DNA of 64,000 nt from Raja brachyura (lineage: Eukaryota). The notes under the pieces are model-generated. The model did no database searches. It saw nothing but the letters and a program-made list of their open reading frames with translations, and was not told the DNA's origin. Of the stretch, positions 2,680-63,792 are shown piece by piece. Position 1 is the first letter of the stretch; every line of letters begins with the position of its first letter. The stretch spans positions 23,498,001-23,562,000 of the forward strand of contig OY740802.1 in assembly GCA_963514005.1 (NCBI GenBank), written 5' to 3'. The position numbers and the translations under genes are program-made.

Positions 2680-3642
2680 TTAATATTGTGTCTGCAAACA
2701 TCTCAGGCGTGGCCACGGGTTTATTATAGAACCGCTGAAAGGTTTTCTCATTAGCCAACCCGCCATTGCAAGGATGTGGTCCATAGGAATTTCCATCATC
2801 CTTGCCGCCGATGTAGATGCAGCTCTGGTGGACTGAGATTTAAAAACATCAGTGTCCACCCCCGCTGCACCCAAAACCATCCTTAGCCATCTTGAAATAG
2901 TTTGCACGGTGACTCTGTGATGAGGACGTTTGTGACTTATAAGCAGAGCCCTTTCCGTGTCCCTGAGACACTTGGTGACCTCCATGCAGTGTAAGAGGTG
3001 GGTCACTATGCATAGGCGGCTGTCTACGGGGTAAGCCTGGAAATCCAACGCGGCCAGATTATCCAGGCCTGTTTTGTTTGAGTAACCCCTGAATGAAGAA
3101 AGTTACCTTTTGTTGGTTATAACCATGGCGTCCATACTTAGCTTGTGTAGGGACTGGACCCGTTGTGCCGTCATGAGTGCCATCAGCATTACCATTTTGT
3201 ATGTCAATTTGGCTAGGGAAAGAGACGTTACTGGTGCCCACCCTCGGAGCATGGTTAACACAATGCCAATATCGCAGGTCTGGGAATATCTCAGCCTGGG
3301 GGGATTTGAGTTAAAAATACCCCTCATAAGTTTAGACACCAAGGGGTGAGGCCCAACTGCAAGATCTAAACCTAGTCCGAGATATGAGGATAGGGCACTC
3401 CTGGCACAGTTGATGGCACTGTAACTTAAACCTTCATCAAAATGAAGGCTTGCCAGGAACTCCAGCACTTCCGTAAAGGTGGCTGTGTCATATGTGGTGT
3501 TTGTCTTGTTACAAAACACCTCCCATTTCTTGACGTAAGTGAGGTATTGTTTCCTGGTGGACTCCCAGCATGATGCCATGAGGATATTCATTGTTCTGTC
3601 TGAGAGTCCAAAATCCAGAAGTGGCCTTTTAAAACCCTGCAA
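2680..3642 (-). pseudogene. DIRS tyrosine recombinase (frameshifted)
   Basis: GLSYSAINCARSALS, TAQRVQSL (catalytic R), QTISRWLR, FKSQSTRAAS (HSTR box with H>Q), AMAGW. Confidence 0.88.
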
Positions 3643-4440
3643 ACCAATAGGTTCATCCGGTCATGGCACGGGTGACTCTCCCCTGTCACAGGATGTACCA
3701 GTAAACTAGGACGTTTGGGTATTGGAATGTATGGTTCTGAGACCATGTGCAGTACCACAGGGAACCATGGCTGAGTAGGCCAGTCGGGTACAACCAGAAT
3801 ACCCGATGCGGAGTCTTGTTGAATTTTCTGCAAGACCCGACTGATGAGGCAGAAGGGGGGAAATGCATAGAAAAACAAATCCCCCCAGTGTAGCGAGAAA
3901 GCGTCCATCGCTACTGCCCCAGGGTTTGGTTCCCATGCAACATATGGTGGTATTTGGAGATTGAGTCTGGATGCAATAAGGTTGATATCTGGTGTTCCAT
4001 ACCGATCTACAATATCGGCAAACACTTTGTGGTCCAACATCCATTCGGTGTTGTCATTAAACTTGCGTGACCTGGTGTCCGCCACTGTATTTAGCTTACC
4101 CGGAAGGTAAGTGGCTGATATCCAAATGTTCCTTTCTAAGCACCAGTGCCAGATTGTATTGACCAATTCATCACAAGATATCGACTTAATTCCACCCATA
4201 TGATTGATGTAAGCCACCACGGTGGTATTATCAATTTGTAGGCGTACATGCAGATGGTGCATGTCCGAACAGTAAGCCCGGAGTCCATGAAATGCTCCCA
4301 GCATTTCTAGATGATTAATTCCCGCTGGCGTCAGTTTGTAGTATAACCGAGGGGTTTGTGATTGTAATGGGATTGGAGCAATGTCGAGCATTGTCTATCC
4401 ACCATTCTAATTCCAATTTTGCTTTTGCTGGTAATTGCAT
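3588..4440 (-). pseudogene. DIRS RNase H plus N6-adenine methyltransferase-like domain
   Basis: LQTDASG (frameshifted) then INHLEM...IDNTTVVAYINHMGG...YLPGKLNTVADTRSR; then EWML...DAFSLHW...YAFPPF...VVPDWPTQPWFP. Confidence 0.88.
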
Positions 4441-5306
4441 TGGCCTGTCAAAATGGCCAGCATGGTGTTTGAGTGCTGAAATTTTTGCTCATTGTAGGTT
4501 TTGGTAATGCAAAGGCCCAAATTGTGTGGCAGGAAAGGCAGCCACAAGCTTCCCAATTACCCTGGCTACTTGCCGAATAGATGGTTTACTGATGCCAGCA
4601 AGGCTGTTACATGCTTCGATTAAGTCTGACGCTTTGTTCGGTGGCAAAGTGACAGACATATGAATAGAGTCAATCGTGAATCCCAAATAGTCCATAGTGG
4701 TAGAAGACATTAATTTGGATTTGTCTGGATGGATGATAAACCCCAGTTTTTGAAATAAGTGCTCAGTGGCTGAGACAGCCAATTTGGCCAACTCCAAGGT
4801 TTTCCCCACAATTAAAATGTCATCGAGGTATGCCATAACAATATGTTTTTGTTTTCTGAGACATGCTAAAGCTAGTTTCAATAATTTGGTAAACAGTCTG
4901 GGTGCTGATGTAAATCCATTAGGCAGCGCTTTATATTGCAAGAGCTACCCCATCCAGGCAAATTTCAAATATCTGCAATGATCTTTGTCTATTGGTACTG
5001 AATAGTATGCATCTTTTAGATCGATGCATGCCATGGAGTATCTCTGGAAACTAGTTGTTTGGCAGTAACAAAAGTTTCCATTTTGAAGTGGGCGTACTGC
5101 ATGAAAGTATTCAGTTGTGTCAAATAATGATGCGGCATCCACCGTCTTTTTTATTTTTGGTGAAGATGTTCAATACAAACTCATGAGATTCATTTTTGGT
5201 TTTCTCAATTACCCCTTTCGTATGTAGTCTTAAGAGTTCAGCATGACCTTCTATCATTTCTTTCTGTGAAGGTACAAACTTTCGACTAGGTGCATGCTGA
5301 ACAGGA
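4441..5306 (-). pseudogene. DIRS reverse transcriptase (frameshifted)
   Basis: KKDGGCRII, IDLKDAYYSVPI, LPNGFTSAPRLFTK, YLDDILI, DYLGFTIDS. Confidence 0.9.
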
Positions 5307-5310
5307 AGGG

Positions 5311-5357
5311 AGAGAAGGAATGGTTGACGTTTCGGGTCGAGACCCTTCTTCAGACTG
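5311..5357 (-). ncRNA. Minimal type-I hammerhead ribozyme motif in a Penelope pLTR fragment
   Basis: Minus strand reads CTGAAGA-AGGGTCTCGACCC-GAAACGTC, i.e. CUGANGA, stem II, GAAA-CG-UC. Confidence 0.6.
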
Positions 5358-7104
5358 TAAACTGAATTTGTGTCCTTAAATGTTACCATTGTGTTATTTG
5401 AATTCACACTCATTGAGTAGTTAGTCTAGACCTCTGAATTACCAGCCCAGGACTGTACTGACGTAACCTTGCGATGGTTCATTATTCATTATTTCATTAA
5501 TTCATTATTTTATACAAGGACTAATTTTGAGTCACAAACTACCTTAAGATGATGCATTTGTAGCCCTATAAAGAATTTAACAGAATATTGTGCTCAGGTT
5601 GCTAAACTGCTCAAACCTCACGGTTTGCCAGAGCCACAAAGCAGCCAACATGACGTCGAAACAGAATGAATATTCATTCTGCATAGTCACCTCCAGTACG
5701 TTTTATTAATTTCTATGGATAATTTTACATACTAGAAATGTAAGCAACATTTTGTACTTTAAAATTTAACAGAATACTAATGTATGTACTAAACACAGAG
5801 AAATCAAAAAAGCTAATGTGTGTATATCTTGGGGATTAAGGGCCAGTCATACAGAGTATTGGCAAGAATAATAACTGACCTAATCATAAACTACAACAAG
5901 CCCAGTGTTAATTCGTGGCAACTGCTCTTTCCACAGAAAGGCGTACACAGCACCTGTTCAACAACTGCTAGTTTTAAAGGGATCTGTCAGCTGGTTCTGT
6001 TTCTGGCCAGGGTAAATCTGTCAGAGATACTTCCAAGGGAATTACTTTGATCAAACTGTAACCAGATTTTAGCATGACCAACTTCTGAAACAGGGGTGAA
6101 AGAAGTTTGTTTTCATGTCTGAAGCGGTAATTTATTGCTTGTGAATAAGATTGTAATGCTGCTTTAACAAAATACAAATTGCAAATCTATTCCCTTTTTG
6201 AAATAAATACAGAAAAGTCTGGAAATTCTCAGCAGGTTAGGTAGAATCCATGGAAAGGGAAAAGAGTTAATGTTTCAGGATTTTTTTACTTTTTATCAGA
6301 ACTGAGAATCCTGAGAGAGGAAATGTTAGGACGCAAAGAATGCAGGGAGGATAGAGCAGAGTAAAGAAGGGAAGGTCTGTGATAGGGTAGGAGGTAGAAG
6401 AAATTAAATGGCAAAAGTGGTGACAGTGCAGTTAAAAAAAGGTGAACATTTCTATTTTTTAGATTTGATGTTGCAAGCCAGGCCAGCACTAACTTCCCAT
6501 CCCTAATTGGCCTTGATAAGGCATTGATCAGCTGTGTTCCTGATCTGCTGCAATCCTTCTGGTGAAGGTACCACTGTGCATTTCTGCAGAGATGCTGTCT
6601 GACCCACTGTGCTGCTCCAGCAGTTTGTATATATCTCTCCTTTAAACATTGCCCCTCTCACCTTAAAGCTATCATTAATTTCATTCATAATCGTTGAAAA
6701 CATTAGCGATGCAGTGGTGCTGGTTTCCAATGGGAACGGTGAGGGACAAATCACACATCTCTGTCCTCCAGTTCCTGCAGACTTCCGCCGCTGGAAGTAT
6801 AGGATTTTGGTGTGTGTGCTTTACCATCATTCCTTACAATGCTATATATGACAATCATTCCAACTTCAACTGGTGTGGATGGCCGTTGACTCGCTAGAAG
6901 CTCATCCGCCCTTTGACAGGTCTTGTTTTTGGTCCTGCTGGGGGTCCACAGCCCCCTCCTCACCTAGCAAACCAGGTGGGGGAGACGGTTTAGTCGCCGA
7001 CTATCCGACCATGAAGCAGGTAGCACAGGATTACATGGTACCCGTGGTGGGGGGAACTTCCCCTGACCTGACCTGAGAGCTATCCCTTTAGGATCTTGGC
7101 CCCA

Positions 7105-9116: not shown

Positions 9117-9780
9117 TAATTGAATGAATGAATAAGTTAATTGGCCAAGTATGTTCACATACAAGGAATTTGCCTTGGTGTTCCGCTCGCAAGTGACAAT
9201 TAAGAGTGACACATAAAACATTAAACATTAATAATAACACTTTATCTATTAAAAATGTGAATTAAATAAAATACCAGAGCAAAAAGAGGCTACAGATTTT
9301 TAGTTATTGAATAGAGCTAATACGCGTGGAAATAAATTGTTTTTATGTTGGGCTGTGGCAGCTTTGATAGTCCGGAGTTGCCTTCCAGACGGAAGTGATT
9401 AAAAAAGTTTGTCTCCAGGGTGAGAGGGGTCAGAGATTATCTTACCCGCTCGCTTCCTGGCCCTTGCAGTGTACAGTTCATCAATGGAGGGAAGGTTGAA
9501 ACCAACAACCTTCCAAGCTGATCGGACAATTTGCTGCAGCCTCCGGGTGTCGTGCTTGGTGGCTGAGCCAAACCAGACCATGATGGAGAAGGTGACGACA
9601 GACTCTACGATGGCCGTATAAAATTGGACCATCATTGCCTGTGGCAGATTGTGTTTCCTCAGCTTCTGCAGGAAGTACATCCTCTGTTGTGCCTTTTTGA
9701 CTGTGGAGTTGATGGTAGCCCCCCATTTAAGGTCCTTGGAGATGATGGTTCCCAGGAACTTAAAAGACTCCACATATCTA
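9117..9780 (-). mobile_element. Rex1/Babar-type LINE 3' portion
   Basis: ORF 9399-9824 contains VESFKFLGTIISKDLKW...KKAQQRMYFL...FYTAIVESV...DPSHPG; (ATTC)n tail on the minus strand; same family as 55615-56122. Confidence 0.85.
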
Positions 9781-9927
9781 ACATATTGATACAATGTTAT
9801 CATATAACATGGAGTATTGACCACATTTCACTGTTGTTAGATTGATCAGTACACTGATGTCATGAGTCTTTTAGATGCTGCACATTATATGACTGCATAC
9901 GGAACTCCAAATGCATTCACCTTCTAC

Positions 9928-12014: not shown

Positions 12015-13613
12015 CAATGGCTTGCAAAAGTATTCATACCCCTTGAACTTTTCCACATTTTGTCATGTTACAAGCACAAACGTAAATGTATTTTATTGGG
12101 ATTTTATGTGATAGACCAACACAAAGTGGTGCATAATTGTGAATTGGAAGGAAAATGATACATGGTTTCCAAATTTCATTACAAATAAAAAACTGAAAAG
12201 TGTGGCGTGCAAAATTATTCAGCCCCCCTGAGTCAATACTTTGTAGAACCACCTTTTGCTGCAATTACAGTTGCAAGTCTTTTGTGGTATGTCTCTCCCA
12301 GCTTGGCACATCTAGAGACTGAAATTTTGCCCATTCTTCTTTGCAAAATAGCTCAAGCTCAGTCAGTTTGGATGGAGAGCGTCTGTGAACAGCAATTGGA
12401 TTTAGATCTGGACTGTGACTGGGCCATTCTAACACATGAATATGCTTTGATCTAAACCATTCCATTGTAGCTCTGGCTATATGTTTAGGGTCGTTGTGCT
12501 GCTGGAAGGTGATCCTCCGCCCCAGTCTCAAGTCCTTTGCAGACTCTAACAGATTTTCTTCCAAGATTACCCTGTATTTGGCTCCATCCATCTTCCCATC
12601 AACTCTGACCAGCTTCCCTGTCCCTGCTGAAGAAAACCATCCCCACAGCACGATGCTGCCACCACCATCTTTCACAGTGGGGATGGTGTGTTCAGGGTGA
12701 TGTGCAGTGTTAGTTTTCCGCCACACATAGCGTTTTGCATTTAGGCCAAAAACTTCAATTTTGGTCTCATCAGACCAGAGCACCTTCTTCCACATGTTTG
12801 CTGTGTCCCCCACATGGCTTGTGGCAAACTGCAAATGGGACTTCTTATGGCTTTGTTTCAACAATGGCTTTCTTCTTGCCACTCTTCCATAAAGGCCCGA
12901 TTTGTGGAGTGCACGACTAATAGTTGTCCTGTGGACAGATTCTCCCACCTGAGCTGTGGATCTCTGCAGCTCCTCCAGAGTTACCATGGGCCTCTTGGAT
13001 GCTTCTCTGATCAATGCTCTCCTTGCCCGGCCTGTCAGTATAGGTGGACGGCCATGTCATGTTAGGTTTGCATTGTGCCATACTCTTTCCATTTTCGGAT
13101 GATGGATTGAACAGTGCTCTCTGAGATGTTCAAAGCTTGGGATATTTTTTTATAACCTAACCCTGCTTTAAACGTCTCCACAACTTTATCCCTGACCTGT
13201 CTGGTGCATTCCTTGGGCTTCATGATGCCCAAGGAACATTGTTTGTTCACTAATGTTCTCTAACAAACCTCTGAGGCCTTCACAGAATAGCTGTATTTAT
13301 ACTGAGATTAGATTACACACAAGTGGACTCTATTTACTAATTAGGTGACTTCTGAAGGCAATTGGTTGCACTGGATTTTATTTAGGGGTATCAGAGTAAA
13401 GGGGGCTGAATACTTTTGCACGCCACACTTTTCAGTTTTTTATTTGTAAAAAAATTTGAAAACCATGTATCATTTTCCTTCCACTTCACACTTATGCACC
13501 ACTTTGTGTTGGTCTATCACATAAAATCCCAATAAAATACATTTATGTTTGTGGTTGTAACGTGACAAAATGTGGAAAAGTTCAAGGGGTATGAATACTT
13601 TTGCAAGCCACTG
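12015..13613 (-). mobile_element. Tc1-family DNA transposon, full length, ~215-bp TIRs
   Basis: TIRs ca[a/g]tggcttgcaaaagtattcatacccc... at ~12015-12227 and ~13401-13613; TA on the right flank; transposase inside. Confidence 0.95.
12233..13223 (-). pseudogene. Tc1 transposase pseudogene (DD34E family)
   Basis: MKPKE..RQVRDKVVE...GLGYKKISQAL (HTH), ARRKPLL, WSDETK, FQQHNDPKH (D>H), SPDLNPI with the catalytic E segment deleted; frameshifts. Confidence 0.92.
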
Positions 13614-25180: not shown

Positions 25181-25479
25181 TTTTATCGTATCTATGCCCG
25201 TTTAAATATTCTTCATGCCCGTCACTTTTGCATCACGCATATATTGTGATTCCAAGATACATTGCAACAGTGCTCCAAGGCTGCTTTGAAAATGCCTTCC
25301 AAACCATTGGTTTCTAACATGAGGGCAGCAATAGAATAAAGCAGAAAGTTCTGGAAATACTCAAGAGATTGAGCAGCATCTGTGGAAAGAGAATCAACTT
25401 TAATGTTTCAGGATAAAATAGAATCACTTTGGCAAACCTAACCTCACCCTGTCAGGGATTTAATTAATGAATTATTAAG

Positions 25480-26062
25480 AAAGCTCATCAGCGCCTCTAC
25501 TTCCTGAGAAGATTACGGAGAGTTGGTCTGTCAAGGAGGACTCTCTCTAACTTCTACAGGTGTACAGTAGAGAGCTTGCTGACTGGTTGCATTGTGGCTT
25601 GGTTCGGCAACTTGAGCGTCCTGGAGAGGAAAAGACTCCAAAAAGTAGTAAACACTGCCCAGTCCATCATCGGCTCTGATCTTCCTTCCATCGAGGGGAT
25701 TTATCACAGTCGCTGCCTCAAAAAGGCTGGCAGCATCATCAAGGACCCACACCACGCTAGCCACACACTCATCTCCCTGCTACCTTCGGGTAGAAGGTAC
25801 AGGAGCCTGAAGACTGCAACAACCCGGTTTAGGAATAGCTACTTCCCCACAGCCATCAGGCTATTAAACCTGGTTCGGAACTCTGAACATTAATATCCCT
25901 CCATCTGTTATTTGCACTTTATTAATTTATTAAGTCATGGGTGTATTTATGTATAGAATTGTAGTCAATGCCTTCTATGTTCTGTTGTGCTATGCAAAGA
26001 AAGATTTTCATTGTCCTGTCAGGGACACATGACAATAAACTCTTTTGACTTTCACTTTGACT
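25480..26062 (+). mobile_element. Rex1/Babar-type LINE 3' portion
   Basis: LTGCIVAWFGN...KDPHH...LLPSGRRYRSL...RFRNSYFP.AIRLLN; catgacaataaa tail. Confidence 0.88.
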
Positions 26063-27693: not shown

Positions 27694-28381
27694 ACTGGGT
27701 GGCGCCCGTAATGGCTTCCTCGCCAACAGTCTGTCTCTTCCTTTTCTTTCTTTGTTGTTTTTAGTATGTGTTAAATATATGTTTTAGTGTTCTATAACTT
27801 GTTTTATGGGGGGGTGGGGTTTTGGGGAAACTTTTTGAAATCTCTTACCTCGACGGAGAGCCGATTTTTTTCAGTATCGTATCTCCGTCCGCTCTGCGAC
27901 CTAACATCGTGGAGTTGGCGGTCTCTGCTGTGGACGAACTTTGGGAGCTCCAACGGCGGGAGCCTGCAGGATTTAACATCGTGGAGCTGGCGGTCCCTGT
28001 CGAGGATCGACTTTGGAGCTCCAACTGCGGGAACCTACGGACTTTAACGTCGTGGAGCTCACGGTCCCTGGTTAGGGACCGACTTCGGGAGCTCCAGGCC
28101 GCAAGTGGTTCAACGTCCCCGACACGGGAGCTTCGATCGCCCCGACTGCGGATGGTTCGACTGCCCTGACCGCGGGAGAATAAAGAGGGAAGATGATTAC
28201 ACTATTATTGCCTTTCATCACAGTGAGGAATGTGGGGAATATGCTTTGGTGGATGTTTATGTTAACTTTTATGTAGTTGTGTATCTTGTTGCTGTTTTTA
28301 GATTGGCTGTATGGTAAATCGAATATCACTGCACCTTAATTGGTACACGTGACAATAAATGACCTTTGAACCTTTGAACTT
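27694..28381 (+). mobile_element. Non-autonomous CpG-rich retroposon with ~72-bp internal tandem units and Rex-like tail
   Basis: taac[a/g]tcgtggag at 27902, 27974 and 28045; tail cacgtgacaataaa...cctttgaacctttgaa. Confidence 0.7.
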
Positions 28382-34695: not shown

Positions 34696-35093
34696 ACGGT
34701 ACACTTGACAATAAACTAAATTCAAACTCAAGCTCGTCTGCTTTGGACAGTCTCTGAAAATGATCAAATGCAAAACTCTCCACAGAACTACGTTTATATC
34801 CAAGGTATTGAAGCTCCAAAAACATCTACTGGGTGGGGTATAGTTTGCAGTCGTTGAGATCTGATTTTCCATTTCTGAAGGATTGCGGAACAAAAAAGTG
34901 AATTTTGAGTTATAATATGCTAAGAATAAAAACATTTCATAGATGAATAAAAATGTCATAGATAGAATTTTTGGGAGATTATTTTGGGAGAGTTTCAAAT
35001 TAAATCAAACCAAATGGTATTGTAATATCAGTGTTTTGTTTTCTGCTGCTGTCTGAAGAAGTAAGCAGAAAGAACCTGCATTATCTTTATATA

Positions 35094-35241
35094 NNNNNNN
35101 NNNNNNNNNNNNNNNNNNNNNNNNNNNNNNNNNNNNNNNNNNNNNNNNNNNNNNNNNNNNNNNNNNNNNNNNNNNNNNNNNNNNNNNNNNNNNNNNNNNN
35201 NNNNNNNNNNNNNNNNNNNNNNNNNNNNNNNNNNNNNNNNN
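35094..35241. other. Assembly gap (N run)
   Basis: Run of N. Confidence 1.
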
Positions 35242-35729
35242 TTCCAAACGCTGAGGCACAGCCTTCCCATTTTCACACATCCTACTCACATTTTTCCTGT
35301 GGAGGCGATAAACATCTTTCCGTCGCATTTCCACCTATATTTCTGAAGTTATTGATCCTTGAAGTTTAAAAAGTGACGTCACAATGCACTCACAAGGCAG
35401 GATGGGACACTCTAGGAGGGAGGGGCATAGCCCGGGGCCTGGGCCTGGGCTGGAGCCGAGCCTGGTGCTGGAGCTGGAGTGAGGCCAAGCCCGGGGCTTG
35501 GGATGGGGCCGTGACCAAGAAAGAAGCCGCTGTTGGAACCAAGGACGGGTCTGGGTCTGGGGTCAGGGATGAGCCCGGAGATGAAGTCGGGGCCTGCACT
35601 GGAGCCCAGACCGCCGCTGAGTTGACAGCTGCAGTCTACAGCCATGGACGGGCCAAGTACGAGAACCAGGCCGAGTTCCAGGCCCTGGCGCCTCTCTATG
35701 AGCTGGTAGGTGCTCGGGCAAGGAATGGG

Positions 35730-36020
35730 AGTGAGGGGAGGAGGATGAGGGAAAGAGGAGAGGGTAGGTAGGGTTGTTGCCATGTCCCCCCCACTCTACC
35801 CCTCTCCCTCTACCCCCTCCCTCTCTCTCTCTACCCACCTCCCTCTCTACCCCCCTCCCTCTATACCCCCCTCCCTCTCTGCCACTCTCCCTCTCTACCC
35901 CCCTCCCTCTACTCACCCTCTCTACCACATCCCCCTTCCTCTCTACCCCCCCTCCCTCTCTAGGGATTGAAGAGGGAGGGTGAAGAGGAGGAGGAGGAGG
36001 GAGTGTTGGTGGATGAGGAG
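35730..36020. repeat. Polypurine/polypyrimidine low-complexity tract with ccctctctac-like units
   Basis: Pyrimidine-rich 35785-35960, flanked by purine-rich tracts. Confidence 0.9.
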
Positions 36021-36779
36021 AAATGCGCAGTTGGGTGAGTGGTGCAATATTGCGTTAGGGGAACAGGTTGTGTTGGGGGAACGGGTGAGTGGTGGAATCA
36101 TGCATTGGGGGAGCAGACCCAATGGGTCTGCACTGGTTCTAGTAAATCATAAAATTATATGCATTAAAAACATCTTTCGCAACCTCAGAACGTCCTCTAA
36201 GACAATGAACCCTTTTGAGGTGCAGCCATGCAATAATCCAGCAAATATGGCAGCTTTATTTTGTAATTTTTCCCAGCTGTAAAGAAATAAATGATCAGAT
36301 TTCTTATGATGTCACTTGAGGGATCATTACTGGGAAAAAAATCTCCTGCTCAAACTTGAAACACTGTCAAAGGCTTCTCTTTGACTATCTGATGGGCTAG
36401 TTCATACAATCATTTAAGATCACACCAAAAAATATTTCTAGTAATGCTCTCACTTGGTAATAAATTGAAGTCCCAGCAAAGATTCTGTGGCTTCACAGAC
36501 TTCCCACTCGGAGACATCGTGTGACCACCAAGCCAAGCCTGACATGTGAGCTTCTGTATGTTATTCAGGCTGACCTGTGACTTTAACTGCTTTGCTGGCC
36601 AGTAAGTGGATGCATTTCCCTTCATTTTATTTTCCGAAGCTTTGCTTTATGGATAAATGCCAAACCAGGAACATATTATTATGAGCTGTTTTATCCCTTT
36701 TTTTTGCTGGATAAATCCCAGAACTTTACTTTCAATTACTATGCGCAAAATTTAACTTGGGATCACAAGAATGGCAATT

Positions 36780-43654: not shown

Positions 43655-43787
43655 NNNNNNNNNNNNNNNNNNNNNNNNNNNNNNNNNNNNNNNNNNNNNN
43701 NNNNNNNNNNNNNNNNNNNNNNNNNNNNNNNNNNNNNNNNNNNNNNNNNNNNNNNNNNNNNNNNNNNNNNNNNNNNNNNNNNNNNNN
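43655..43787. other. Assembly gap (N run)
   Basis: Run of N. Confidence 1.
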
Positions 43788-44594: not shown

Positions 44595-46625
44595 AGAGAG
44601 TCATAGAGTCATACAGCGTGGAAACAGGCCATTCTCCCCATCTTACCCATTGAACAAACATGGTCCATCTACACAAGTCCCACCTACACAAATCTATCCT
44701 ATCCATGTACTGTATCTGTCTAAATAGTTCTTAAACGTTATGATAATATTTGTCTCAACTAGCTCCTCTGGCAGCTCATTCCAAACACCCACCGCATTTG
44801 TGTAAAAAACATACCCCTCGGGTTCCTATTCCCCCCCTCACCTTCAACATATGTCCTCTAGCTCTCGATTCCCCTGCTCTGCGAAAACGATGCTGTGCAA
44901 TGACCTAATCTATTCCTTTCATGATTTTGTACCTCTTTTAGATCACCCCTCATTCTCTCGCATTCCAAGGAATAAAGTCCTAGCCTGTTCAACCTTTCCT
45001 TATAGCCCTTCTAGTCCTGACAACATCCTTGTAAGTCTTCTCTGCATCCTTTTCAAACTGACAACATAATTCTTATACTGTAACAGGGTGACCAAAGAGA
45101 ACACAATACTCTAATTGTGGCCTCACCAACGTCTTATGCTGCAACATGACCTCCCAACGTCTATACGCAATACTCTAACTGATGAAGACCAATGTGCCTA
45201 AAGCCTTCTTGACTACCCTATCTACTTGTGATGGCACTTTCAAAGAACTATGTACCTGCACTCCTAGATCCCCCTGCTCTACACTACAACCCTCCCGAGA
45301 GCCTTGCCGTTCACTGTGCAGGTCCTATTCTGGTTACACTTTCCAAAATGCAACATCTGACACTTCTCTGTATTAAACTCCATCAACCATTCCTCAGCCC
45401 ACCTGGCCAATCAATCAAGATCCTGCTGCATTTTTTTACAAGCATCATCACTATCTACAATACCACCCACTTTAGTGTTATCTGCAAACTTGTTAATCAT
45501 GCCATGTACATTCTCAACCAAATTATTGATATAGATGACAAACAACAATGGGCCCAACATCGAACCCTGAGGCACATCACTCCACAGGCCTCCAGTCCGA
45601 AAAAATACCTTCCCACCACCTCTGCTACCTTACATGAAGCCAATTTTTTATCCATTCAGCTATCTCTCCTTGGATCCCATGCATTTTAACCTTCCAGAGC
45701 AGCCTACATTGCAAAAACTTGTCGAATGCCTTGCTGAAGTCCATATATACAATGCCTACAGCTCTGCCCTTATTAACCTTTTTGATCACATCTTCAAAAA
45801 ACTCAATCAGGTTCGTGAGGCATGACCTCCCATGTAGAAAACCATGCTGACTATTCCTAATCCCTTGTCCATCTAAATGAATGCATGTTGAATGGGGAGT
45901 GTTCCCAGTGAGTGCGGCCATGCCCTCCAGCAGTCCTGCCTCACCCACTGCAGACGTTGGACCTGCCCAGTAGGCTCGGCTTGCCCGCCGCGGACGTCGA
46001 CAGGGCCGGCACCACGAGAGCAAGGAGGGACCAGCAAGCAACCACTGAGAGCGAGCAGGGTTGTCGAGGAGCGAGGTGAGCTGTTGAGGAACGAGATATG
46101 CCATCGAGGAGCGAGGAAGGTCGGTGCGGAGCAAGGAAAGCTGTCAGAGAGTAAGCAAGGCTATCGGGGGCTCCTGGCGGTGGGCGGCCGAGGACGGGCC
46201 ACATGAGTGCCAGAGGTCGAACGGGCCATGTGAGTGCCGGAGGTCAATTGATGACGCACTGCCGAGAGAACAAAGTGGGGCCCGGCATAGTGGGGTGCTG
46301 AGAACAAAGTGGGACCAGGTGTGGTCGGGCCGACGAGAAGAAGGAGGGACCATTGGGTCTACATTGAACACTTGGTAACTTTGTCGGTGACCTATACGTG
46401 TCGTCTCTTTGCATACATTGTGTATGGTATGCAAAACATAGAATTTCACTGTGATATGTCACATGTGATAATAAAGTATCAATCAATCTCAGAATACCCT
46501 CTAGTAACCTTCCGACCACAGATGTTAGGCTTATTGGCCTGTCGTTCCAAGGCTTTTCCCTGCAGCCCTTTTTGAATAGAGGCACAACATTTGCCATCCT
46601 TCAGTCTTCTAGTACCTCACCTGTA
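44595..46625 (-). mobile_element. CR1 LINE RT-to-3' fragment, interrupted at ~45878-46487
   Basis: ANVVPLFKKG.REKP.N.RPISLTSVVG; SQHGFLHGRSCLTNLIEFFE...VYMDFSKAFDK. Confidence 0.9.
45878..46487 (+). mobile_element. GC-rich non-autonomous retroposon with Rex-like tail
   Basis: Splits the CR1 reading frame; ends gaatttcactgtg...cacatgtgataataaagtatcaatcaatc. Confidence 0.65.
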
Positions 46626-48771: not shown

Positions 48772-49257
48772 CATAGAAACATAAAAACATAGAAAATAGG
48801 CGTAGGAGCAGGCCTTTCGGCCCTTCGAGCCTGCACCGCCATTCAATATGATTATGGCTGATCATCCAACTCAGTATCCCGTACCTGCCTTCTCTCCATA
48901 ACCCCTGATCCCTTTAGCCACAAGGGCCACATCTAACTCCCTCTTAAATATAGCCAATGAACTGGCCTCAACTACCTTCTGTGGCAGATAATTCCAGAGA
49001 CTCACCACTCTCTGTGTGAAAAATGTTTTTCTCATCTCGGTCCTAAAAGATTTCCCCCTTATCCTTAAACTGTGACCCCTTGTCCTGGACTTCCCTAACA
49101 TCGGGAACAATCTTCCTGCATCTAGCTTGTCCAACCCCTTAAGAATTTTGTACGTTTCTATAAGATCCCCCCTCAATCTTCTAAATTCTAGCGAGTACGA
49201 GCCGAGTCTATCCAGTCTTTCTTCATATGAAAGTCCTGCCATCCCAGGAATCAGTTT
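48772..49257 (-). mobile_element. Young 5'-truncated CR1 LINE
   Basis: Intact ORF2 C-terminus MAGLSYEERL...RRLRGDLIETYKI...RTRGHSL...GYGEKAGTGY*; (tttctatg)n tail; near-TSD ggtag(g)ttta. Confidence 0.92.
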
Positions 49258-49914
49258 GGTAGTTTAGGTGGACTGAGCAGAGGTGTTCAGCGAAACGATC
49301 GCCGAGCCTGCGCTTGATCTCGCCGATATATAGGAGTCCACACTTGGAACAGCGGACCCTGTAGATGATGTTGGAGGAGGTGCAAGTGAACCTCTGCCTC
49401 ACCTGAAAAGACTGTCGGGGTCTTCAGACGGAGTCAAGGCGGGAGGTATAGGGACAGGTTTTGCATCTCCTGTAGTTGCAGGGGAAAGTACCTGCCCCAG
49501 CTACACTAGTCCCACCTCCCCGCGTTTGATCCATATCCCTCCAAACCTGTCCTATCCATGTACTTGTCTAACTGTGTATTAAACATTGGGATAGTACCTG
49601 CCTCAGCTACCTCCTCTGGCAGCTTGTTCCATACCCCCGCCACCCTTTGTGTGAAAAAGTTACCCTTCAGATTCCTTCTTCAAGATGATCATTTTTGAAT
49701 GATGTCTATAGCGTGATCTTTCCGCCAGAGTCATTTATCCTTTATGTTTGGCCTATGATCAATCCTTTCTCTTGGGGCATGTGTTCCATATTACTGCAAA
49801 CAATGTTTTTCGTATTAATGTATTTTAAAGGCCAAATATTATTAAACGATCATTTTAATAGGAGAGTGAATGTGAAAAACAAACTTGTGTTTCTAATCTA
49901 TTGTATTCATGAGA

Positions 49915-55614: not shown

Positions 55615-56122
55615 TAAATGAATGAATGAATGAGTAAGTTTATTGGCCAAGTATTCCAATACAAGGAATTTGCCTTGGTGCTCCGCCTGCAAGTGACTAC
55701 GACATACAGTGACAGTTAGGAATGGCACATAAAACATTAAACATTAATCATAAAACATTATTGATTGAACATGTGAATTAAATTAAATACCAGAGCAAAA
55801 GGAGGCTACAGATTTTTGGTTATTGAGTAGAGCTACTACTTGTGGAAAAAAGCTGTTTTTATGTCTGGCTGTGGCAGCTTTGACAGTCCGGAATCGCCTC
55901 CCAGAGGGAAATGATTCAAAGAGTTTGTGGCCAGGGTGAGAGGGTTCAGAGATGATCTTGCCCGCTCGCTTCCTGGCCCTTGCATTGTACAGTTCATCAA
56001 TGGAGGGAAGGTTGCAGCCAATAATCTTCTCAGCTGATCGGACGATTCGCTGCAGCCTCCAGGTGTCGTGCTTGGTGGCTGAACCAAACCAGACCATGAT
56101 GGAGAAGGTGAGGACAGACTCT
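55615..56122 (-). mobile_element. Rex1/Babar-type LINE 3' end
   Basis: MVWFGSATKHD...PSHPGHKLFESFPSGRRFR...SFFPQ; closely similar to 9117-9610. Confidence 0.85.
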
Positions 56123-56829
56123 ACTGAACCACACTACACAATCCATACCATAATTCTACCTCAGCAAAATCTACAATGAACTGTGTTTTTGGTTGCACCA
56201 TGTACTTTGGTTTGGCACTATCATGTAGACAGAGCAGTCATTTATAGATGTGATTTATTGTGTTATTAATTATTGTATATTTCTTATTGCATTAATGGGC
56301 ATGAAAAGCTGCAGCACGTAAGTATTTCATTGTCCATTCCCGGTTCATGTGACAATTAAACATGCTTGACTCTTGAGGAGGAATCGTTGCTACAGTAACA
56401 TGGTACCCGCGGCATAAGTCTAAATATTTCACAATTAGATCAAACTGTTCCACCTGAGCAATTGTCCTGGCATTTATCTCAGACATCAGGACTAAATTTC
56501 TGCCCTAAAGTGATTGGAATGAGACATGCATTTGGCAAACTGTTGACTCACAGGCAAGAGTGCACATATGGTTATATATTACCCATGAAGTCCCACACAA
56601 TATCAAACTTTTTCATAAATACAGCTTCACAATTCATGGTCTGCCATAGTCAAGAAATGTGAGTTAATCCCTCTGGTTGCTTTTTGAATAGTGCACAAGA
56701 AAATGAGATCAAAATTTAGCAACCAGGCTACATAATCACCACATCAAAATGAACTCAAATTACATCAATAAAATAATGCTCTTTCTACATTGTGTTTATT
56801 CCTATGGACATTATTGTACAAAGTATATT

Positions 56830-62099: not shown

Positions 62100-63140
62100 A
62101 ACATGAATTTAGCAAAGGGAAATTGTGTTATGCAGTTACTTTGTACGTGGAAGGTTAGGTCTTACAAACATGATGGAGATTTTTGAGGAGGTGACAAAGG
62201 TGATCGAAGAGGCTAGTGCAGTGGATGTTATCTGCATGGCCATTTGATACAGTCCTTCATCGACGGCTGATCCTGAAGATTAAGATGCACGGTATTCACA
62301 GTGACTTGATTGTTTGGATTCAGAATTGGCATATTCGGAGCAGACTGAGTGTTGTGTTGGAATGGTATTATTCTGGCTGGAGATCTGTAACCCGTGGCTT
62401 CTGTAAATTGTAAATAGCCCCTTTGCAATATGAGTATTTTGTTAGGAAAGTTGGAGTATTATTAAATGAGGAGTAATTGGGAAATGTTGAAGTATGAAGG
62501 GACTTGGTTGACCTTATACAGTAGTCACTGATAGCAAACATGGTGGGGCATGCAATAAGCAATGCAAGCAACTGGTAGTTTAGTTTTCATTGCCAGAGGA
62601 GGAGTAATTGTTCAGGGCCCGAGACAACATCTGGAGTATTGTGAGGGGGTCTCATTGAAACAAACAACATTCCGAAGAAGGATCCCGATCCAAAATGTCT
62701 CCTATCCAATTTTTCCATAGATGCTGGCTAATCTGCTGACTTACACCAGCACTTCATGTTTTATTCAATTCAAGAATCTGCAGTCCCTTGTGTCTGACTG
62801 GGCCCAATAAATAGAAGGAGGTGTTGGGGGGGGGGGTCTTTGTTTCTCGTGACTGTAGCATAGAACAAGGGGGTCATGGTCCTATGAAATGGGGTGGGAC
62901 ATTAAGAACTACAATTAAAAATGTCTTCTCTCTGGGAATAGTAATCCTATGGTTTGTCTATTACAAAAGACTGCTGAGATCTATCTGCTGAATATAGTCA
63001 AGAAAATCAATACATCTCTCACACACAAAGGCACTGAGTAGAGTGCATGAGAATGTGGCAATTAGAACAGCAATTAGAACGAGCTACAACAGCATGGCTG
63101 GCTTGAAGGCCAAATGGCCTGTTCCTACTCATATTTTTAA
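62100..63140 (+). mobile_element. Degraded CR1 fragments
   Basis: GRLGLTNMMEIFEEVTKVI...FDTVLHRRLI.KIKMHGI. Confidence 0.7.
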
Positions 63141-63792
63141 TGTCCATTTCCTATTTTCTAGCTTTCAGCATCTTTTAACCTTTATGGAAATCTTTAATCA
63201 ATTGAGATCAATAGATTTGTCCAATAAGCTCTATACTCCAGAACTATGTCCGAGTATACTACCCAACCAATATTAAACAGGTTTGGCTTAAAATTAACGT
63301 CCCAGAATTGTTTTTCCCTTTCATCGTTGCTTTGTTTTATTGGGCTCCCTGGATTACACAAGACTGGATTTACGGAAATTGGATTTTATGCAAATTCTCC
63401 CATAGAACTGCAACCAAACAATGTTTCTGTGAATACTAACTTGTCATTACTTGATCATGGATGTTTGTCCATAATCTTCCAACTTCAAAGTAGCTTTGAT
63501 TAATTTCTGTCAAAAGTATCTGTACCGGCACATCCAAATGGCTTAATTAAAAATAAATATCTTGCAAGAATTTTCTTGCCTCTGCCCGGTGCTCTAGGCC
63601 TTTTATGACTATATCTAAAGCAATCGACTGCAAATGAGTGAGCATCTATTATTATTTCTGTCATTCATTTGTTTCCTCTTTACGGAAACACTGAAATTGT
63701 TTGTTTCCAATTCGCATTGAAATCATTTGCAGTAATATCTCAGGAACAAAACCTTTGCATAACCCACAAATTGCTGCTTTACATTTCTCTTG

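Follow-up and report, generated by a model that had tools for sequence, protein, structure and literature searches.

A probably non-autonomous Helitron family that spreads a coding-like stretch ending at a splice-donor motif

According to the accessible text of the Helraiser experiments, the 3′ hairpin of a Helitron acts as a terminator that can be bypassed, such read-through takes neighbouring host sequence along into the element, and integration occurs at AT dinucleotides within AT-rich DNA (PMC4778049). Among the described systems that resemble the locus considered here, HelibatN3 of Myotis bats is, in the available parts of its sources, a non-autonomous Helitron1 that holds a first exon, its donor and a partial first intron, exists in about a thousand copies, has TC and hairpin/CTAG ends and targets A|T (PMC4224331, PMC4778049). 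Heli1Xen1 of Xenopus laevis comprises Helitron1 insertions with CDS fragments that stem mostly from gene 5′ ends (17 of the 19 captured) and show a bias toward the element's own orientation, again as far as the accessible part of the source goes (PMC12001565). Non-autonomous Helitron1/HLE1 elements, in the portion of the source at hand, have a 3′ hairpin followed by CTRR, insert at A|T junctions, are non-coding, and occur in many copies with a mosaic interior (PMC11417382). Among cartilaginous fish, the whale shark is listed as having Helitrons in the accessible part of one paper (PMC8455134); a literature search whose scope left subscription papers mostly outside, and Repbase/Dfam and supplements likewise, turned up no account of gene capture by Helitrons in this group, and the available portions of PMC6817897, PMC10468316, bioRxiv 10.64898/2026.10.27.761883 and bioRxiv 10.1101/2025.06.08.657570 contained nothing on it. 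Repeat libraries and supplements may hold the family described below.

The locus is a member of a high-copy repeat family whose 3′ end is of Helitron1 type, likely a non-autonomous Helitron, and its whole interior, including a stretch of 31 open codons, is repeat sequence. It lies in the 64-kb stretch of DNA that was analysed as a whole (the window), and is laid out as follows, with the hairpin, the CTAG|T end, the open codons, the GTAGGT motif and a run of N near the 5′ end all found where the original prediction had placed them.

35084..35093, plus strand: after an A (A|TC at 35083|35084), the putative 5′ terminus TC, read from the sequence, truncated by the gap, its link to the interior being presumed
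35094..35241, no strand: assembly gap of 148 N, probably spanning the TG-repeat part of the element's 5′ region
35242..35371, plus strand: 5′ module common to most of the family, GC 0.41
35372..35612, plus strand: GC-rich low-complexity stretch of Gly/Ala/Glu type, with many indel variants among copies
35613..35705, plus strand: 31 open codons with codon-position bias, a family sequence and likely the end of a captured exon
35706..35711, plus strand: splice-donor-like motif GTAGGT, phase 0 in the window copy
35706..35785, plus strand: G-rich stretch resembling an intron start in composition
35786..35962, plus strand: degenerate C/T tandem tract of period 16 (10.8 copies, 71% matches)
36031..36112, plus strand: G-rich subterminal module that includes a short 18-bp tandem (36050-36086), with length variants among copies
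36113..36131, plus strand: 3′ hairpin with an 8-bp stem and a 3-nt loop, from sequence and DNA folding
36139..36142, plus strand: CTAG 3′ terminus, 7 nt past the hairpin, followed by T (36143) and marked by a depth drop

A stem of at least 6 bp stands just upstream of 5 of the 63 CTAGT sites on both strands of the window, and the stem before the CTAG at 36139 is the longest and most GC-rich of these five candidates; DNA folding of the hairpin gave z = -2.28, with equally stable structures in 5 of 200 shuffles. Part of 35242-36142 is present in 20 public runs with 10 organism labels from 12 studies, and contigs from four of these runs were placed on 34800-36450 at 80% likeness (8,380 contigs for run X2 and 12,015 for X13). 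Across the CTAG, depth falls about 350-fold in both runs, from 50,375 to 146 in X2 and from 146,612 to 414 in X13, while 68 X13 and 8 X20 contigs extend past 36144 into dissimilar AT-rich flanks (agreement among them 0.45 in X13). The sharp drop together with contigs running into mixed flanks indicates that CTAG is a genuine recurring repeat terminus, so that the predicted Helitron-type 3′ end is borne out by the public contigs, and AT-rich flanks of mixed sequence at a recurring end agree with the preference of Helraiser for AT-rich targets in the accessible text (PMC4778049). Within the window there is no second copy of this 3′ end (best match 21 of 31), self-BLAST gave no inverted match between the element ends with most of the 5′ end inside the gap, Rfam had no matches, and the hairpin-end pattern had 0 matches in metagenome contigs and 0 in viral contigs.

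Depth also tells how the interior is distributed. The flanks are each covered by a single contig, at a depth of about 10 in X2 and about 20 in X13, and relative to them the interior stands at 120-4,900x in X2 and 210-7,600x in X13, differing by module; contig depth summed in this way does not equal copy number, so these ratios give an order of magnitude. The bin at 35248-35303 reaches about 2,300x (X2) and 3,600x (X13) the flanks, the segment 35584-35751 about 300-950x and 580-1,400x, respectively, and the 31 codons themselves about 300-1,200x. At three variable positions within these codons (35645, 35648 and 35693) the majority letter is carried by 78-100 contigs per run, and at 35692 by 76 and 87 contigs, compared with one contig for each flank. 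Amplification in so many variant contigs shows that the stretch is a family sequence spread with the element and makes a resident exon unlikely, and the part of the original prediction that had the family spreading a coding-like stretch is thereby supported. The family is mosaic, its subfamilies breaking at 35372 and 35754 and its subterminal tandem varying too; loose ends behind 35754 in 52 X2 and 75 X13 contigs mark the point where most copies leave the window copy. The coding-like stretch is likely present in every copy of this particular subfamily. Several variants within 35577-35705 look frame-preserving, though they are few; four X2 contigs jump back by 33 nt, from 35609 to 35577, and one X13 contig has a deletion from 35639. 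Run X1 contributed only 13 contigs, tiling the locus at a depth of about 2; it has half of the sampled words, and runs from the same sample and study (X21, X22) have none.

How might such a stretch have come to lie inside a Helitron? The reading we favor, to which we give an even chance, is that a Helitron ancestor took up, from a host gene, the last part of a GC-rich first coding exon together with the donor and the intron start. By the mechanism published for Helitrons, a RepHel transposase from an autonomous element would nick at the 5′ TC and copy one strand; copying might sometimes pass the old 3′ hairpin into adjoining host DNA and end at a new hairpin/CTAG, which would fix the piece of host DNA inside the element, and later rounds of transposition would amplify it. 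No RepHel domain was found by Pfam among the window frames. The sense orientation of the stretch and its 5′-end-type character match the capture bias reported for Xenopus laevis in the available part of the source (PMC12001565). The window copy itself looks like a decaying passenger, having no in-frame start and residues that differ from those of most copies. A more ambitious version, in which the captured first exon amounted to 30-70 codons with a putative working donor, the roughly one thousand copies predate species splits, and some intronic copies splice into host genes, would make the family a mobile cassette of exon and donor comparable in scale to HelibatN3, and is in our judgment unlikely.

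Whether the 31 codons were ever coding is the question on which the strongest alternative turns. According to this alternative, the element is a non-autonomous Helitron, but the codons are GC-rich non-coding DNA or a degenerate short-period repeat, and the apparent frame is a chance maximum; we regard it as a serious possibility, about half as probable as capture. The original prediction had called the stretch coding-like and GC3-rich, and GC at the three codon positions is 0.71/0.42/0.74, with 23 of the 31 third positions G or C. A combined codon score (G at the first position, A and not G at the second, G or C and not A at the third), devised after the sequence had been seen, ranks the stretch first of 27,230 open 93-nt windows (of 126,884) with a value of 1.39, and the bias is strong in only one of the six frames. 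Dinucleotide shuffles reached this score in their best of six frames in 1 of 5,000 trials and in 0 of 3,000 in a repeat run, and none of 3,000 reached the score of the 73 codons at 35487-35705, which speaks against a never-coding origin. Plain measures separate the stretch less sharply, chi-square being matched by 142 of 5,000 shuffles and GC3 minus GC2 by 38 of 3,000. The predicted bias is the strongest in the window by the combined score, with 33 GC-rich tiles having been available to choose from. The 15 different residues among the 31 codons are no more varied than in shuffles (1,145 of 3,000), but together with a balanced G/C skew they set the stretch apart from the surrounding tracts. The low-complexity tracts adjoining the stretch fit a non-coding origin, and so does a GC-rich 71-bp tandem elsewhere in the window, which looks non-coding and nevertheless scores 1.26. 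This tandem (27902-28096, 2.7 copies) has the second-best codon score in the window. Upstream, the predicted G/A/E-rich low-complexity sequence is indeed in frame, since 26 of the 42 codons at 35487-35612 have G at position 1 in the same frame as the 31 codons; its combined score was reached by 42 of 3,000 shuffles. No in-frame ATG precedes the 31 codons in the window copy, a further point for the never-coding alternative, and a pattern search found no acceptor-like pyrimidine tract upstream of them. Compared with the listed majority letters, three of the four affected codons of the window copy change the residue (His/Gln, Pro/Leu, Glu/Asp), although four codons, from among the majority letters listed, say little about selection.

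The boundary at the donor motif bears on the same question. GTAGGT follows the 31 codons directly, but the motif is common, occurring 28 times in the window, with a second one close by at 35764, and this frequency counts in favor of a never-coding stretch. On the other side stands the switch in composition at the GT, where G skew goes from 0.00 to 0.78 and G-runs per 100 nt from 1.1 in the 31 codons to 7.5 beyond them. Such G-rich composition is the usual look of a GC-rich vertebrate intron start, but most modules of the element are G- or C-skewed. The predicted phase of the donor is not a fixed property of the family. An extra G behind 35704 occurs in 26 X2 contigs (13% of depth) and 21 X13 contigs (12%), as well as in one X13 joint and in the closest X1 contig, where the depth of 2 leaves room for an error; it would place the donor in phase 1 in those copies. 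The motif stands at its predicted site, and phase 0 applies to the window copy but not to every copy. None of the 20 runs is listed as RNA. Run X20, which we guess to be RNA, spans the element from end to end but reaches into neither of its flanks, and among its listed joints and loose ends none falls at the GT; contigs of this kind cannot show splicing levels, and the result weighs neither for nor against use of the donor.

Searches for a donor gene were blank. A word-indexed search of 5.8 billion proteins, restricted to those of 73-2,000 residues, gave 6 candidates and 0 hits, a profile scan gave 0 among 1.84 billion representatives at E 0.001, and PDB sequences, Pfam and NCBIfam (six frames) contained no homologue of the 31 codons. 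Atlas recognition values of 2,120 and 1,358 lay under the 2,300 mark, and searches of metagenome and viral contigs by protein gave 597 and 38 pattern matches, respectively, with none confirmed. A Pfam match to DUF6255 was discarded, being weak (E 0.15) and located outside the 31 codons. A control search with a LINE frame from the window retrieved 226 proteins, of which the 120 listed came from ENA (112), EukProt (4), JGI (3) and Logan (1), with an NCBI or UniRef origin in none of these 120; annotated vertebrate proteomes thus seem thinly represented in the protein database. Because of this, and because the query is short and decayed, the blank carries little weight, and it neither proves nor refutes capture. 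Of the proposed captured host exon, then, the spread of a coding-like stretch stands, whereas a host homologue appeared in none of the protein searches, and the latter is again what a never-coding stretch would predict.

The missing homologue would equally be accounted for if the codons were a remnant of a transposon gene, whether from an accessory gene carried by the autonomous Helitron (an OTU-type protease, for example) or from another element, left after internal deletion. A single-sequence structure model predicts two helices in a helix-loop-helix (pLDDT 69), a fold compatible with this idea, and the second helix has what we take to be a resemblance to an OTU-family motif. Autonomous Helitrons give rise to the non-autonomous kind, and several domains, OTU among them, lie upstream of RepHel in Helitron1, according to the accessible part of the source (PMC11417382). 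The remnant reading nevertheless found no support in Pfam, PDB or Foldseek, although the 0 Foldseek matches are uninformative for a model of 41 residues. Transposon frames in the window score 0.06-1.00 against 1.39 for the stretch, though these frames are decayed and GC-poorer, and a donor motif and an intron-like tail come next, which also speaks against a remnant. We therefore consider this explanation improbable, less so than those that follow.

A further alternative accepts the 3′ end as that of a true Helitron but gives the element other limits, either because the TC at 35084 is there by chance or because the interior is a composite of separate insertions. Only 10 bases lie between the putative TC and the gap, too short to place other copies, and ATC followed by eight A/T letters occurs at 39 sites in the window. 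No contig among those listed from the four runs spans the gap at 35094-35241; one X2 contig from the left flank reaches 46 letters into it, and an X13 left-flank contig diverges from the window at 35059, 31 of its letters staying unplaced. Depth differences of up to 40-fold between modules might likewise be read as a sign of separate insertions, and an empty insertion site was seen in none of runs X1, X2 and X13. The insertion is present in X1 and X2, where contigs bridge the 3′ junction, but these two runs are nearly identical to the window and are possibly not independent of it; in X13, one contig that differs at 20 of 336 letters includes the element's final 28 bases, slightly under the 31-letter threshold of the tool. 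Against other limits, single-copy depth holds on the left as far as 35093, high depth continues unbroken from 35242 to 36143, and the family's leftward overhang, with a median of 33-67 letters, fits inside the 148 N. Loose ends before 35242 start with TG-repeat-like letters in 55 (X2), 65 (X13) and 1 (X1) contigs, and such overhangs would explain the assembly gap. The bases flanking the proposed ends are A and T. Taken together, other limits seem to us a slim prospect, and of the predicted pair of Helitron-type ends the CTAG end holds, while the TC end stays unlinked across the gap among its many similar sites.

Least of all do we credit that a resident gene has the 31 codons as one of its exons, a reading to which the codon bias, the donor motif and the insertion at this site in X1 and X2 lend something, but which has hardly any probability left given the very many variant contigs carrying the stretch, the residue changes in three of the four codons that differ from the listed majority letters, the lack of an acceptor-like pyrimidine tract or in-frame ATG upstream, and the lack of any host-gene Pfam domain in 375 window frames of at least 55 residues, a length that short exons would escape. 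Later exonization of the window copy is possible.

Other features of the window are of a repetitive kind. A decayed DIRS/Ngaro-like retroelement occupies 2683-5425 on the minus strand, with RVT_1 at 4492-4944 (E 4e-15) and a match to a tyrosine-recombinase N-terminal domain at 3106-3660 (E 2e-7), and a fragmented Tc1/mariner transposase (HTH_SB, HTH_Tnp_Tc3_2, DDE_3; longest frame 263 residues) lies at 12268-13259, also on the minus strand. Pieces of LINE reverse transcriptase, presumably of CR1/L2 type, are found on the minus strand at 48874-49263 and 45414-46143, the former with relatives up to 97% identical in ENA-assembly proteins among the matches listed. Two Pfam matches to ALKBH8_N (9402-9827, minus strand, E 8e-15; 25471-25890, plus strand, E 2e-9) lie in frames that resemble each other and 55786-56133, so they are probably repeat-derived rather than an ALKBH8 gene. 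A match to the AP205 coat protein (62998-63273, plus strand, E 5.6e-5) fell below the curated cut-off and was set aside as probably due to chance among 375 frames. A second assembly gap, 133 N at 43655-43787, has no Helitron-type start in its flanks.

If capture of an exon end from a host gene is the correct reading and the donor gene is found, this would be the third vertebrate lineage, after bats and Xenopus in the literature consulted, with a Helitron-amplified host exon, and among the few high-copy cases. Insertions common to related species would then date the capture, and hundreds of dispersed donor sites would make transcript rewiring testable in slowly evolving genomes. Repeats of this kind mislead gene prediction as well, and masking is advisable. 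Capture of a first exon with its donor has already been described in bats and Xenopus, so the novelty here would concern the lineage and the family and not the mechanism. Compared with HelibatN3, whose donor gene is NUBPL, whose captured segment includes the promoter and only six codons, and for which exon trapping was shown in cells in the accessible parts of the sources (PMC4224331, PMC4778049), our family has 31-73 coding-looking codons. Compared with non-autonomous HLE1 elements, its 3′ end is observed and its 5′ TC is putative. Finally, whereas Heli1Xen1 has, in the available part of the source, 19 fragments in 64 insertions, with as many as 17 copies in the example it cites (PMC12001565), the family described here carries one stretch whose depth exceeds that of the flanks by a factor of several hundred to about a thousand.
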